IMG/VR virus record: IMGVR_UViG_2695420486_000012
Reading direction: 5' to 3' (one strand)
DNA: 7,509 nt
Source: a virus
Lineage: Duplodnaviria; Heunggongvirae; Uroviricota; Caudoviricetes
Positions 3,513 through 7,490 of the stretch are shown here, in pieces. A model generated the notes under the pieces. That model was given only the letters and a program-made list of their open reading frames with translations, was not told where the DNA came from and searched no databases. Numbering within the stretch: position 1 is the stretch's first letter; every line of letters begins with the position of its first letter. The translations under genes were made by a program, and so were the position numbers.

Positions 3513-4040
3513 ATGATGCACCTGAAAAATATTAAGGCCGGGAATCCGAAAACACCGGAACAATACCAGCTAACTAAAAAAGCGGGCGTGGTATGGCTCT
3601 TTTGCGAAGATGGCAAAAACTGGTATGAGGAACAAAAGAATTTTCAGCCAGACACCATAAAAATTGCTTACGATGAGAACAACATCATCGTTGCTGTCAG
3701 TAAAGACGTTTCAACTATTAATCCTGAAGGGCTAAGCATAGTTGAAGTTCCTGATATTACGGCAAATCGTCACGCAGACAATAACGGAAAATGGATGTTT
3801 CTGGATGGTAAAGTAGTAAAGAGGGAATATACAGAACAGGAACTGCAACAACAGGCCGAATCACAAAAGGCCGCATTGCTTTCCGAAGCTGAATCAGTCA
3901 TCCAGCCGCTGGAACGCGCTGTCAGGCTGAATATGGCGACGGACGAGGAACGCACACGACTGGAAGCATGGGAACGCTACAGTGTTCTGGTCAGCCGTGT
4001 GGATACGGCAAAGCCAGAATGGCCACAAAAGCCTGAGTAA
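3513..4040 (+). CDS. tfa: Tail fibre assembly protein (Tfa chaperone) paired with the expressed stf variable domain
   Basis: The ORF track calls 3477-4040, but that start overlaps stf. The preferred start is ATG ATG at 3513/3516, preceded by ggggag at 3499-3504 and overlapping the stf stop (taa 3509-3511). The C-terminus [25 protein letters not shown] resembles the lambda Tfa C-terminus ([16 protein letters not shown]..EWP). The N-terminus is homologous to the - strand tfa' (MxHLKNIxAGNPKTxEQYQLTK...EDGKNW). Confidence 0.85.
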
Positions 4041-4045
4041 AAATT

Positions 4046-4065
4046 AAGGCCCGATATCGGGCCTT
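4046..4065. terminator. Perfect 20-bp palindrome, candidate bidirectional terminator at the convergent tfa / tfa' 3' ends
   Basis: aaggcccgatatcgggcctt is its own reverse complement. It lies 5 bp after the tfa stop, flanked by aaaatt on one side and gtttcatt on the other. Confidence 0.5.
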
Positions 4066-4068
4066 GTT

Positions 4069-4199
4069 TCATTCTGGTTGTTCGGGAAACGTTACTGGCA
4101 GGCTGGAGGTGTCTGTGGATTCGACCTTCTGCGCATAGAGCATCCACTCGGTTAATTTTTGTTTATTCTCGTCGGAAATAATGCCCAGCCGTAGCTGTG
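4069..4199 (-). pseudogene. 3' fragment (~43 codons) of a tfa'-type gene, truncated by the IS element
   Basis: The region 4069-4199 is ~94% identical to 5592-5722, the 3' end of the intact - strand tfa', offset 1523 bp. The homology stops exactly at the IS terminus at 4200. Confidence 0.6.
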
Positions 4200-4242
4200 T
4201 GAGGTGTACTGGCAATAGCGGACACTACCATTTGTTCTTTTT

Positions 4243-5061
4243 TTAAGCAGCCATCTGATGATATTTTTCCCTGAAGGCTGCCGGGGAGATATTCCCCAGA
4301 CGAGAGTGACGACGCTGACGATTGTAGAAAATCTCAATGTATTCCCGTATTACTGAGATGGCTTCATCCCGGTTATTAAAACGATAGTGGCTCAGGCTCT
4401 CATTTTTCAGCGTTCCCCAGAAGCTTTCCATCGGAGCGTTGTCGTAACAGTTACCTTTACGCGACATTGATGTTTTCAGACCAGACTGCTCCTGTATGAC
4501 CCGGTAATCGTATGCGCAGTACTGTGAACCTCGATCAGAGTGGTGGATTAGCCCGGCAGGTGGGCGCTGGCTCCTGAGCGCCATAAACAGGGCTTTACCT
4601 GTCAGCTCTTTTGTCATGCGCTCTCCCATGGCGTAGCCGACAATTTCGCACGTATAAACATCTTTGATGCCAGCGAGGTACAACCATCCCTCCTGTGTGG
4701 CAACATACGTCAGGTCCGCCACCCAGACCTGATTTGGTGCTGTAGGAGCGAACGTCTGGTTCAGCAGATTTGGCGCAACTGGCAGATTGTGGTTCGAGTT
4801 CGTAGTCGCTCTGAACTTGCGTTTCTGCTTACAGCGTAGCCTTAGCTCCTTACGAAGACGTGCCAGTCGGTCACGACCAACGATGATGCCATTCTCTGCC
4901 AGCTCCGTCTGGAGCCGCCGGGTTCCATATGTTTCGCGAGTGCGGATATGTGCCACCTTAATCTCCAGTTTTAGCCGCTCATCACTTTGTTTTCTGTCTG
5001 AGGGTTCATGCTGTACCCAGTTGTAATAACCGCTCCTGGATACACCAAATACCTGACACAT
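4243..5061 (-). CDS. IS3-family transposase OrfB (DDE integrase domain); in vivo the C-terminal part of an OrfAB fusion made by -1 frameshifting
   Basis: 272-aa ORF with rve-type motifs (HSDRGSQY, NAPMESFWGTLK, FYNRQRRHSRLG). The open frame extends upstream to 5160, in the -1 frame relative to orfA. Confidence 0.85.
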   Translation of the reverse strand: MCQVFGVSRSGYYNWVQHEPSDRKQSDERLKLEIKVAHIRTRETYGTRRLQTELAENGIIVGRDRLARLRKELRLRCKQKRKFRATTNSNHNLPVAPNLLNQTFAPTAPNQVWVADLTYVATQEGWLYLAGIKDVYTCEIVGYAMGERMTKELTGKALFMALRSQRPPAGLIHHSDRGSQYCAYDYRVIQEQSGLKTSMSRKGNCYDNAPMESFWGTLKNESLSHYRFNNRDEAISVIREYIEIFYNRQRRHSRLGNISPAAFREKYHQMAA

Positions 5062-5096
5062 CGCTTCAATGGGAAATTGTTGTCGCCATTGTTCGA

Positions 5097-5399
5097 TTAA
5101 CGCGTATTTTTCAGCGACTCCTGTGCAAAATACGCTGTTGCTTTTTTTAATATATCTCGCTCAAGGCGAGCTTCATTTAACGCCTTACGCAGTTGCAGAA
5201 TTTCAGATTCCAGTTCAGCCACCGTGCGGGAACCAGGAGTACCGAGCCCTTTTCTGGCGGCGGTAACCCATTGTCCTAAAGTGCCTTCAGGAAGAGATAA
5301 TCGGGAAGCGCCTTCACTGATCGAAAGTTGATTTTCAAGAACCGTTCTGACAGCTTCGGCTTTGAACTCTTTAGAGTAACGTTGGGTTTTTCTGCTCAT
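5097..5399 (-). CDS. IS3-family transposase OrfA (helix-turn-helix / leucine-zipper DNA-binding subunit)
   Basis: 100-aa [23 protein letters not shown]...[15 protein letters not shown]. aggag Shine-Dalgarno (reverse complement of 5403-5407) upstream of ATG (reverse complement of 5397-5399). Ends just past the slippery heptamer. Confidence 0.85.
5142..5148 (-). other. Programmed -1 ribosomal frameshift site (A AAA AAA G) joining orfA to orfB
   Basis: A run of seven T on the + strand (5142-5148) is A7 followed by G on the coding strand. The orfA frame reads ILKKAT. The -1 frame continues [37 protein letters not shown] into OrfB. Confidence 0.55.
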
Positions 5400-6125: not shown

Positions 6126-6127
6126 GA

Positions 6128-7048
6128 TTATACCTGCGATACGTTATACCATGTTCCGTTAATTAACTTTTGTATTGGTCTGAATACTGCCGGATCATCA
6201 CCATCGACTTCACCGATAATACCAAGCCCCGTGATTACATGGCCTGATTTTTCATACATCACGCCTTTCTTCATGGTCTAAACAACTCGTGTGCCAAGTC
6301 TGACATCTCTCACATAGCGGGAATCAAAGTTACCGTAATCCGAGGGATTAACACGTCCCGTAATATTTATGGTTTTATTACTTTGAATGCTTCCGGAGAC
6401 AAAGCGCATAACATGGACGTTATTAGCATAAACATCCAGATTACCATCGCCTTTTTGTTTAAAGCCCGTGTCATTATCACCCAATACAATCGAATTACCG
6501 CCAAGAGCACTGGATGTTCCGATACCCAGTGCACCATTCAGTTGACCACCAGATAACGGCAGTGCACCAACATCTCCTGCTGAAGGTTTTCTGGTGGTGT
6601 AAAATTCGGACCAGTCGGCTTCAAAACCATAACCATCACGGGCTGAACGATAAAAAATACCGCCATTTTTATAATTAATCCGAAACTGAGCTGCAGGACA
6701 ACTTCCTTCTCCCATATAAAAATGAATAATTAACGTTGATGCACCACTAATAGTTGCGTTATAGGCTCCGCTACTCCAGTTCCATCCAACTGCTTTATCA
6801 TTCGCAACGGTGCTTCCTGTTTTCCCTAAGGCAAACGCACCAACATGACTTGCTTTTAATGTGATATCGGAGGAACCATCAAAAGCCACATTGCTTATTT
6901 TCCTGGCAGTTTTTAATTTTGCAGCTGTAGAAGCATTGCCGGATAGTTCACCAGAAAGGCCACCGCTGAATGTTTGTCGATTAGTCCAGGTATTCGCTGT
7001 ACTGAGTAACGGTATTTTCTCCCCGCTTGTGCCGAGTTCTCGTAAACC
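6128..7048 (-). pseudogene. Alternative tail-fibre C-terminal variable segment (stf', promoterless and lacking its own N-terminus), interrupted by an in-frame TAG
   Basis: The - strand frame is open from the pixR crossover site (7048) to a TAG at 6278-6280 (GLRELGTSGEKIPLLSTANTWTNRQTFSGGLSGELSG...[20 protein letters not shown]...YVRDVRLGTRVV*). The same frame then continues for 49 codons (TMKKGVMYEKSG...[20 protein letters not shown]) to a taa at 6128-6130. That tail is homologous to the Stf C-terminus ...[19 protein letters not shown]. The frame would be continuous with the stf constant part after inversion at pixL/pixR. Confidence 0.65.
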
Positions 7049-7062
7049 GAGGTTTTAGATAA
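7037..7062. other. Candidate 26-bp invertase crossover site (pixR), inverted relative to pixL
   Basis: TTCTCGTAAACC-GA-GGTTTTAGATAA, about 23/26 match to the gix-type consensus TTCCTGTAAACCGAGGTTTTGGATAA as recalled. Located ~55 bp upstream of the pin start, as in Gin/Cin/Pin systems. Confidence 0.6.
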
Positions 7063-7116
7063 TGGCGGTTTCTGGCCTGCATGGCATGATTTGTGCTTTT
7101 GGACGGGAGATTCAGC

Positions 7117-7353
7117 GTGCTGATTGGCTATGTAAGGGTATCAACAAATGACCAGAATACAGACCTGCAACGAAACGCTCTTGTTTGTGCAGGATATGAA
7201 CAAATATTTGAAGATAAATTAAGCGGAACAAGGACAGGCCGACCTGGATTAAAACGTGCTTTAAAGCGCCTTCAAAAAGGTGACGCACTGGTTGTCTGAA
7301 AACTGGACTGACTGGGTCACTGTATGCGGCATCTTGTCGTGCTGGTGGTGGAA
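7117..7353 (+). pseudogene. pin: Pin/Gin/Cin/Hin-family serine DNA invertase, 5' portion only; in-frame TGA after codon 60, second TGA four codons later, 3' two-thirds missing
   Basis: GTG at 7117 preceded by gggaga (7104-7109). Encodes MLIGYVRVSTNDQNTDLQRNALVCAGYEQIFEDKLSGTRTGRPGLKRALKRLQKGDALVV, which matches the invertase N-terminus including the catalytic Ser in YVRVSTNDQ. Then TGA (7297-7299) where the family has Trp. The same frame reads KLD*LGHCMRHLVVLVVE, recognisably the VVWKLDRLGRSMKHLISLVGE region. The resolvase-fold remainder and the C-terminal HTH are absent. Confidence 0.75.
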
Positions 7354-7443
7354 GCCTAGAAAAAGTATCGGGTGTTGCTGAACCGTGTTGATACATCAAC
7401 TGCACCTGATATTGAGTGGCCTACGAACCCTGTCAGGGAGTAA
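7354..7443 (+). pseudogene. Lambda-Tfa-like 3' fragment fused in frame to the pin remnant, with a TAG at the conserved Trp position
   Basis: Frame reads [28 protein letters not shown], versus lambda Tfa C-terminus [24 protein letters not shown] as recalled. TAG at 7357-7359, final taa at 7441-7443. Confidence 0.6.
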
Positions 7444-7457
7444 TCATTGGGATTATG

Positions 7458-7490
7458 CCGCAGCACGTCTTAAGCAAGAACGTGCTGCGG
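7458..7490 (+). terminator. Stem-loop (11-bp perfect stem) downstream of the tfa-like fragment; possible terminator
   Basis: ccgcagcacgt (7458-7468) pairs with acgtgctgcgg (7480-7490) across an 11-nt loop. A T-run (tatttttt, 7499-7506) follows after an 8-nt spacer, so terminator function is uncertain. Confidence 0.35.

Follow-up and report, generated by a model that had tools for sequence, protein, structure and literature searches.

Why should the 3' end of a tail-fibre assembly gene (tfa) recur three times, each time followed by a hairpin, within one short stretch of prophage DNA? A sequence-only reading of this stretch placed all three copies at rearrangement junctions and proposed that the shared end acts as a homologous linker through which tail-fibre cassettes are exchanged. 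The DNA analysed here (the window, 7,509 nt) is the entire 7.5-kb draft scaffold CXEB01000188.1 of a Shigella sonnei-type genome, and the sole difference between the two is at position 5464, which is N in the public record and A in the window. The locus is the tail-fibre end of a lambda-like S. sonnei prophage with a Pin-type invertible segment (Table 1). All three copies are ordinary: the first is a normal gene end, the second is the neighbour of a scaffold join and the third is an old, widespread remnant.

Table 1. Features of the 7,509-nt window, from left to right (positions are those of the window).
Feature	Position	Strand	Remarks
lom (Ail/Lom outer-membrane protein)	4..603	+	199-aa ORF; upstream of the fibre genes
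stf, side tail fibre gene	755..3511	+	918 aa; lambda-type constant part and variable C-terminal part, meeting at pixL; Pfam phage_tail_N (E = 3.6e-69) and gp37_trimer
pixL, left crossover site	2592..2623		32-nt inverted repeat, 84% complementary to 7037-7068
tfa, intact tail-fibre assembly gene (copy 1)	3513..4040	+	Caudo_TAP E = 1.7e-36
93-bp stretch identical in lambda-like and older P2-like alleles	3845..3937	+	crossover interval, or assembly phasing switch
Hairpin 1, between convergent tfa and tfa'	4046..4065		starts 6 nt past the tfa stop; -15.7 kcal/mol (+), -17.0 (-)
tfa' 3' fragment (P2-like allele)	4069..4199	-	cut by IS600; 48-aa ORF starting inside the IS
IS600 (IS3 family)	4200..5463	-	1264 bp; orfA 5097-5399, orfB 4243-5061
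Scaffold join	5464		exactly where IS600 meets copy 2
tfa 3' fragment (copy 2), resident lambda-like allele	5465..5563	+	left end of the scaffold's second contig; Caudo_TAP E = 1.3e-08
Hairpin 2, hairpin 1 element in the other allele	5569..5588		one loop difference; -14.4 kcal/mol (+), -20.5 (-)
tfa', convergent second tail-fibre assembly gene	5592..6125	-	177 aa; Caudo_TAP E = 4.8e-34
Sv', alternative fibre C-terminal segment	6128..7036	-	Pfam gp37_C, gp37_trimer
pixR, right crossover site	7037..7068		inverted-repeat partner of pixL
pin invertase remnant	7117..7345	+	~75/195 codons, two in-frame stops; Pfam Resolvase E = 2.9e-15
Lambda-type tfa 3' remnant (copy 3)	7346..7443	+	Caudo_TAP E = 5.5e-11
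Hairpin 3, between tfa and a convergent ybcY-like methyltransferase gene just past the window	7458..7490	+	-28.5 kcal/mol; starts 15 nt after 7443

The order of the segment is the constant part of stf, pixL, a variable part with tfa, a hairpin, the convergent tfa' with its own variable part, pixR and a dead pin gene, and lom, which is annotated as Ail/Lom in an E. coli O121 relative and carries Pfam Ail_Lom in public gene calls, lies upstream. The layout is that of the Pin/Gin/Cin/Min segments (the e14 P region, the Mu G segment, the P1 C segment and P2-like prophages), which end in a serine invertase gene. As in the Din family, crossover sites in inverted orientation bound the segment, and it contains two cassettes of fibre tip plus tfa in opposite orientations. 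We take pixL and pixR to resemble gix and cix, and a relative whose segment is flipped (L014) carries a hybrid pixR/pixL site. Unlike those systems, the constant part here is a lambda-type Stf, not a myovirus fibre, and the exact Stf protein is present in closed S. sonnei genomes, HE616528 included. The alternative fibre segment is also broken: a stop codon separates ORFs 6278-6889 and 6128-6274, and closed genomes show the same split. Finally, the only serine invertase sequence in the window is the truncated, stop-containing remnant, which was aligned to the intact 195-aa pin of L012; an intact invertase of this length is present in the P2-like prophage of related assemblies. Both complete assembly genes are where a Caudo_TAP gene should be, tfa starting 2 nt past the stf stop and tfa' preceding the alternative fibre segment, and a convergent pair about 28 nt apart is found in 63 of 80 related viral contigs. 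The two fragments, copies 2 and 3, have no partner fibre gene.

The three plus-strand Tfa C-terminal ends described earlier, each with a hairpin no more than 15 nt further on, are indeed present, and all three peptides match Caudo_TAP (PF02413) above the profile cut-off of 22.1 bits. The scores are 125.7 bits for tfa, 117.8 for tfa', 35.5 for copy 2 and 43.2 for copy 3, and the two fragments match profile positions 97-131 and 107-130, respectively, at its C-terminal end. The count of three holds for the plus strand, but the window has five such ends, those at 4069-4199(-) and 5592-5690(-) having been missed. Similarly, the first two copies are near-identical, as had been said, but they belong to a longer direct repeat of 256 nt with 96% identity (3942-4197 and 5465-5720), which takes in the 3' end of tfa', on the minus strand and convergent with tfa, as well. 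Every Tfa chaperone has this motif as its conserved domain, which is why it recurs: a passage of PMC9608196 that cites North et al. (2019) describes the C-terminal domain as the conserved chaperone part and the N-terminal domain as variable and fibre-binding. Thus, the motif is foremost a feature of the protein, and constraint at that level explains it, which counts against a role as a selected patch of DNA.

The hairpins sit between convergent genes. Hairpin 1 is flagged as terminator-like on both strands, and both its stem and the tfa/hairpin/tfa' layout are kept in 63 of 63 related loci. Hairpin 2 is flagged on the minus strand only, its plus side having no canonical U-tract. Judging from their sequence, hairpins 1 and 2, which are the shared hairpin of the convergent tfa genes, look like a two-way terminator. 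Hairpin 3 is conserved in lambda with one compensatory pair and is not flagged as a canonical terminator, the T-run being 10 nt downstream. Against shuffled sequences, the z-scores are -3.3, -3.0 and -4.6 for hairpins 1, 2 and 3.

What, then, separates copies 1 and 2? The element between them matches, over 1264 of 1264 nt and with 99.9% identity, elements annotated as 'IS3-like element IS600 family transposase' (Pfam HTH_Tnp_1 and rve). In length and in its orfA/orfB organization it is like other IS600 insertions in Shigella, and its left end lies within tfa', 135 nt past hairpin 1. Unlike a typical insertion, it has no 3-bp target duplication in the window, where its flanks are GTG and AGA. 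A duplication at the same site is seen only in other contigs: two N-free contigs of a P2-like prophage (L019 and L020) share the identical left junction as part of a simple insertion, with CAC on both sides (GTG in the orientation of the window) and the rest of tfa' beyond the element. The left junction in the window is likewise contiguous sequence, so IS600 really adjoins the copy-1 allele in this strain. On the right, in contrast, lies the N of the public record. In sister scaffolds, single Ns join blocks that are non-contiguous elsewhere; of 12 Ns, all but one of them single, four fall exactly at IS600 ends. It is from this pattern and from the usual behaviour of scaffolders, rather than from documentation in the record, that we read a single N as a placeholder join. 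The target duplication would then be missing because the right side of IS600 is a scaffold join.

Comparison with other genomes assigns the two sides of the N to different alleles. Against closed S. sonnei genomes, positions 1-3937 have one mismatch, 3938-4198 have 13 and 5464-7509 have none (100% identical). In four closed genomes, each with one IS-free copy, tfa and tfa' are adjacent, with neither IS600 nor repeat. Positions 2594-4199, on the other hand, are identical to the allele of L012, which in L010, L011 and L012 adjoins P2-like tail and baseplate genes, and the copy-1 tfa is 100% identical to that of L010, L012 and L014. Furthermore, the start of copy 2 (5465 onward, GACGAGGAACGC) equals position 3942, only 1-4 nt past 3938 and 3941, where the alleles first differ. 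In this genome, the lambda-like prophage and a P2-like prophage with IS600 in its tfa' would each have a tfa/hairpin/tfa' centre, and the two centres would be near-identical. A scaffolder may have followed the lambda-like stf and crossed to the P2-like allele with its IS600, and the lambda-like contig would then have been appended behind a placeholder N. The tandem copies around IS600 are most likely an artefact of such scaffolding, and we consider this account of the locus as a whole probable. The join of IS600 to copy 2 could still be biologically correct. The P2-like 3' allele is present twice in scaffold L010, from the same project, which hints at three modules in some strains, so the real structures may exceed a simple picture of two modules.

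A real IS600-flanked 256-bp repeat could have arisen if two IS600s, one at 4199/4200 in the P2-like tfa' and the other near 3941 in the lambda-like tfa, had recombined, or if a transposase-induced break had been repaired from the other prophage; either event would leave one IS600 between diverged centres. The unmatched flanks (GTG and AGA) are expected of a recombinant element, and the two copies are different alleles that are 96% identical, as if from two prophages. However, the junction itself is an N, with no sequence, and no gene product spanning it is on record anywhere, nor does any closed genome have the arrangement. Contigs often end at IS boundaries, so the start at 5465 may be a true IS flank, but the supposed insertion point lies within 1-4 nt of the first allele differences, where an assembly fork explains it with no further assumptions. 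The left junction, moreover, belongs to a simple insertion in the N-free contigs. We therefore regard a real repeat as unlikely and prefer the scaffolding artefact. The claim of three copies at rearrangement junctions does not survive: copy 1 is the end of an intact gene, the 'breakpoint' of copy 2 is an unsequenced scaffold join, a single N, and copy 3 is the only one at a verified junction, which is an old one.

Copy 3 was described as a lambda-like fragment fused to a pin remnant, and this description is borne out, with the remnant pin directly 5' of it. It is Tfa-related by both its Caudo_TAP match and its likeness to lambda, in which tfa and hairpin are 85% identical to copy 3 and its hairpin, and it is annotated in E. 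coli as a partial tail fiber assembly protein. Its start had to be moved from 7354 to 7346, where tfa homology begins; a start at 7354 takes in an in-frame TAG (7357-7359, replacing a Trp codon). Among 5,426 closed E. coli genomes, 427 carry the entire pin'-'tfa fusion, which is old and widely inherited. There is no extended homology at the junction, which consequently looks like an illegitimate deletion or fusion. As to the order of these ancient events, the lambda-type tfa end and its downstream hairpin would be what remained after the invertible cassette had been attached to tfa at codon ~165 via a truncated pin. The DLP12 cluster of E. coli K-12 (the tfaD - ybcY - tfaX pseudogenes) and the lambda tfa-ea47 region are similar in that a lambda-type tfa 3' end and hairpin precede a SAM-methyltransferase gene of convergent orientation and another tfa fragment, and in the K-12-derived strains H77 and H78 the match begins at the equivalent of 7346 and extends into the methyltransferase gene. 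The window differs in that its remnant is fused upstream to the pin remnant rather than being part of a longer tfa pseudogene, and in that it stops short of the methyltransferase gene and the second fragment. This second leftover tfa fragment is about 1 kb beyond the window, and the junctions of the leftovers fall at different codons and have no flanking homology.

The idea of a linker is an old one and the biology beneath it is already known. On a rival explanation, the tfa 3' end and hairpin would be a selected patch of DNA-level homology at which half-cassettes (fibre tip plus tfa) are exchanged among lambda-like, P2-like, Mu-like and P1-like modules. Recurrence at breakpoints can no longer be cited for it, as copy 1 is at no breakpoint, copy 2 is at a scaffold join and copy 3 is without extended homology. 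What does favour it is the allele pattern of copy 1: up to 3844, all 112 informative sites agree with the lambda-like allele, and from 3938 on every site agrees with the older P2-like one. This suggests a single crossover just before the motif, within 93 bp over which the two alleles are identical, at the edge of an island (~96% identical, with flanks of ~70%), or else an assembly phasing switch. Identity at third codon positions also increases along tfa, being 0.53-0.75 (mostly 0.55-0.68) in codons 1-130 and 0.75-0.85 near the 3' end, in codons 131-170; the identities of tfa and tfa' to the window are uncoupled across 63 loci; and the homology of phages Turner and PhiR68_2 to the window begins inside hairpin 3. 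In addition, lambda has been shown experimentally to recombine with the defective prophages Rac and Qin via stf-tfa homology (PMC3945230).

Breakpoints, however, do not cluster at the motif. In a comparison of 56 related modules, sharp changes in identity are scattered along the entire module, with 0 of 20-22 change-points in 3942-4065 (about 1.8 expected) and 9-10 in 3845-4300 (6.5-7.1 expected, p about 0.15), a result close to that which the sequence-only reading had named as refuting its linker. What speaks for the linker here is the possible crossover and the rise in third-codon identity. The recombinant allele, moreover, is absent from closed E. coli genomes and confined to six draft contigs assembled from short reads, and may be a phasing error via the 93-bp stretch, and the scattered junctions of the leftover tfa fragments point to illegitimate joins, not to exchange within the motif. 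A selected linker is thus unlikely. It is equally doubtful that the island of tfa 3' end, hairpin and tfa' 3' end is a maintained patch reassorting half-cassettes between unrelated resident prophages, with the crossover allele as a recent, real example. The three-allele pattern does resemble the 'HR trace' model of De Paepe et al. (2014), drawn from mosaics made by relaxed homologous recombination of temperate phages with defective prophages, in which a 100%-identical block and a flank of intermediate identity lie in a background of low identity, and stf-tfa exchange was demonstrated in that study (PMC3945230). Unlike in that work, the partners here would be two resident prophages (lambda-like and P2-like), and the recombinant is known from draft assemblies only.

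In summary, the mosaicism of fibre modules, the conservation of Tfa C-termini, the presence of leftover tfa fragments and exchange between prophages by homology are all already documented. The apparent IS-flanked duplication, with its recombination junctions, depends on one letter of a short-read scaffold, a placeholder N that the supplied window rendered as an ordinary base. Because near-identical repeats occur within one genome, claims of rearrangement in prophage tail-fibre genes need closed genomes.

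At this locus an invertible tail-fibre segment of the Pin/Gin type is grafted onto a lambda-type stf, and its invertase gene is dead. An exact Tfa protein match identified the window with the whole of contig CXEB01000188.1 (7,509 bp; our locus L013) from assembly GCA_001255275.1. Closed genomes encode exact matches to the 918-aa Stf protein; in one of them, Shigella sonnei 53G (HE616528), the copy lies in a lambda-like prophage adjoining the trp operon.

Features of the window, mapped from ORFs, Pfam matches and repeats
Feature	Position	Strand
lom	4-603	+
stf	755-3511	+
Crossover site pixL, within stf	2592-2623	.
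tfa	3513-4040	+
Hairpin 1	4046-4065	.
3' fragment of convergent tfa'	4069-4199	-
IS600	4200-5463	-
Second tfa-3'/hairpin/tfa'-3' centre	5465-5720	+
tfa'	5592-6125	-
Alternative fibre tip, stop-codon-broken	6128-7036	-
Crossover site pixR	7037-7068	.
pin remnant	7117-7345	+
Lambda-type tfa 3' remnant	7346-7443	+
Hairpin 3	7458-7490	+

The alternative fibre tip (6128-6889, minus strand) is split by a stop codon at 6275-6277 into ORFs of 203 and 48 aa; since closed genomes share the identical split, this fibre is probably defective. In a related contig (ABIDGX010000210.1, L014; 1400-1440) the segment is flipped, and a hybrid pixR/pixL site links the dead-pin side straight to the fibre tip preceding tfa. 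As the prophage's own pin is dead, this implies an invertase acting in trans, probably the 195-aa Pin of a P2-like prophage. Other copies of IS600 lie in the crossover site of the P2-like prophage (L019, 2118-3381; L020, 7734 onward) in the order TTATCTAAAAC, IS600, AACCTCGGTTTACAGG, with target duplication AAC, and would there block inversion. The strongest terminator-like hairpin of the window (13 pairs and then a T-run) stands between lom and stf (707-736, plus strand), an unexpected position within a late operon. A degenerate 33-nt repeat family occupies the Ala/Ser-rich centre of stf (1130-1831, plus strand), and the long other-frame ORFs over it, among them ones of 364 aa and 244 aa, seem to be artefacts of composition.

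The three plus-strand Tfa C-terminal ends (copy 1, closing the intact tfa; copy 2, 5465-5563; copy 3, the lambda-type remnant) and their three hairpins lie where the sequence-only reading had placed them, and each of the peptides scores above the curated cut-off against the C-terminal end of Caudo_TAP (Pfam). Copy 3 starts at 7346, with TAG replacing a Trp codon. Copies 1 and 2 fall within a 256-nt direct repeat of 96% identity (3942-4197 vs 5465-5720), which also takes in the 3' end of tfa', the convergent second tail-fibre assembly gene, so that the window holds five Tfa C-terminal ends. The sequence facts of that reading were sound, but its framing, in which all three ends sat at rearrangement junctions, mostly was not: copy 1 is at no such junction, and the supposed junction of copy 2 with IS600 is base 5464, which in the public record is an N and not sequence.

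This N alone separates the last IS600 base from the start of copy 2, and it is the sole difference between CXEB01000188.1 and the supplied window, where an A hides the scaffold join. Scaffolders usually place a single N where a join has no measurable gap. Sister scaffolds from this accession series also contain single Ns, which join blocks that are non-contiguous in closed genomes, and four of the 12 Ns in these scaffolds (11 of them single) fall exactly at IS600 termini. That copy 1, IS600 and copy 2 form a real tandem, produced by IS600-mediated recombination, is improbable. The left junction, GCTGTG/TGAGG, recurs in L019 and L020, two long contigs of other assemblies that contain no N. In these, IS600 has simply inserted into the tfa' of a P2-like prophage, with a 3-bp target duplication and the other 137 tfa' codons on its far side; its flanks in the window (GTG and AGA) are mismatched. 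Look-up of the ORF across the right junction (5438-5563) found no record anywhere. The N and this simple insertion at the same site demote both routes considered for a real repeat, namely two IS600 insertions with recombination within the element, and break repair copied from the other prophage.

In all four closed genomes compared (L002, L004, L007 and L009), tfa adjoins tfa' without IS600 and without the repeat. Against them the window has one mismatch over 1-3937, 13 over 3938-4198 and zero over 5464-7509, a distribution by which copy 2 represents the resident lambda-like allele, and copy 1 is foreign from 3938 onward. Copy 2 starts at the equivalent of 3942, just past the first allele differences (3938 and 3941), which is exactly the point at which an assembly graph would fork. 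Taken together, the N, the closed-genome comparison, the left junction found elsewhere and the start of copy 2 make it most likely that scaffolding joined two allelic centres, from two prophages, end to end. The underlying structures would be a lambda-like prophage without IS600 and a P2-like prophage with IS600 between tfa' sequence on both sides, IS600 being joined to GTGAGTCCCATAGC.

Relative to shuffled sequence the hairpins fold far more stably, with energies of -15.7, -14.4 and -28.5 kcal/mol and z-scores of -3.3, -3.0 and -4.6 for hairpins 1, 2 (5569-5588) and 3, respectively. Hairpins 1 and 2 are two alleles of a single element, differing at one loop base. The stem of this element, AAGGCCCG/CGGGCCTT, is retained by every related viral contig whose tfa genes converge (63 of 63), and the loop holds almost all of the variation. 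An upstream A-run provides a U-tract in the minus-strand transcript, and the plus-strand tail is weaker; judged from these sequence features, the element most likely serves the convergent genes as a two-way terminator. Hairpin 3, positioned between tfa and a convergent methyltransferase gene just past the window end, has no adjacent U-tract; lambda conserves it, with one compensatory pair.

Copy 3 and hairpin 3 together are 85% identical to lambda tfa and its downstream hairpin. About 75 codons of the pin remnant align to intact pin before the alignment decays, and no extended homology was seen at the pin/tfa junction, so an illegitimate join fits the fusion. The complete fusion occurs in 427 of 5,426 closed E. 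coli genomes, and the tfa-3'/hairpin/methyltransferase block in a far larger number. Homology between the window and the inducible phages Turner and PhiR68_2 starts within hairpin 3, after unrelated upstream genes, which marks the end of the late operon as a mosaic boundary; such a boundary is well known in lambdoid phages. Past the convergent SAM-methyltransferase gene, about 1 kb beyond the right end of the window, closed genomes have a further lambda-type tfa fragment that is longer (74 codons; L002, 15991-16235); S. sonnei 53G has an IS1 insertion in the left arm of the hairpin downstream of it. This fragment/methyltransferase/fragment arrangement corresponds to tfaD-ybcY-tfaX in DLP12 of K-12.

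The sequence-only reading had proposed that the conserved tfa 3' end acts as a homologous linker for exchange between tail-fibre modules, and comparison of three alleles gave one candidate exchange. Up to 3844 the copy-1 allele (L012) agrees with the lambda-like allele (L002) at all of 112 informative sites, and from 3938 on it agrees at every site with the older P2-like allele (L020 minus IS600); this places a single crossover within 93 bp of identical sequence. Identity of the parents is ~70% left of 3844, ~96% over 3845-4300 and ~70% again beyond ~4400, the same pattern as the 'HR trace' of De Paepe et al. (PMC3945230), who showed lambda to recombine with the Rac and Qin prophages via stf-tfa homology. 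Mis-phasing through the 93-bp stretch would give an identical pattern; the recombinant allele is known from six short-read draft contigs only and is absent from the closed E. coli genomes searched (best match 97.7%). Over 2594-4199 the window is 100% identical to the allele of related contigs beside P2-like tail/baseplate genes and an intact 195-aa invertase. A difference at 2593, within pixL, was rejected as the left end of an exchange, being private to the window contig. Two other drafts are patchworks over the equivalent of 3938-4198: L015 has P2-like SNPs at 3938-4123 only, in a lambda-like background, and L011 differs from the copy-1 allele solely at 4123. As the switches fall in the longest SNP-free gaps, these could be short gene-conversion tracts or assembly mis-phasing. 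One scaffold, L010, carries P2-like tfa 3'/tfa' sequence twice (6324-7021 and 10388-11085), once behind an older P2-like tfa and once behind a lambda-like tfa, together with a partial lambda-like tfa'; some strains may have three modules, or the scaffold may be redundant.

As to constraint on the protein, Tfa proteins of the lambda and P2/Mu types have the C-terminal motif conserved between them, and published structural work assigns fibre binding to a variable N-terminal domain and describes the helical C-terminal domain as conserved (PMC9608196, citing North et al. 2019). Among 56 unique related modules, the last 130 nt of tfa have the highest identity (0.91-0.95 vs 0.76-0.85 upstream), and third-codon identity is 0.75-0.85 over codons 131-170 vs 0.53-0.75 (mostly 0.55-0.68) over codons 1-130. 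Sharp identity change-points did not gather at the tfa 3' end. A change-point scan gave 5-10 distinct boundaries at a strict threshold and 20-22 at relaxed ones, without clustering there at either; sharp changes were spread over 3343 to 4665, with none of the 20-22 in 3942-4065 and 9-10 in 3845-4300 (6.5-7.1 expected; p about 0.15). The linker interpretation restates a long-standing idea on mosaic tail fibres (Haggård-Ljungquist 1992 and Sandmeier 1994, via PMC3945230 and PMC8986868), and the new support that it gains here is weak. The allele comparison and the 56-module scan show no sign of a dedicated linker; homologous exchange seems, instead, to use the conserved centre roughly in proportion to local identity.
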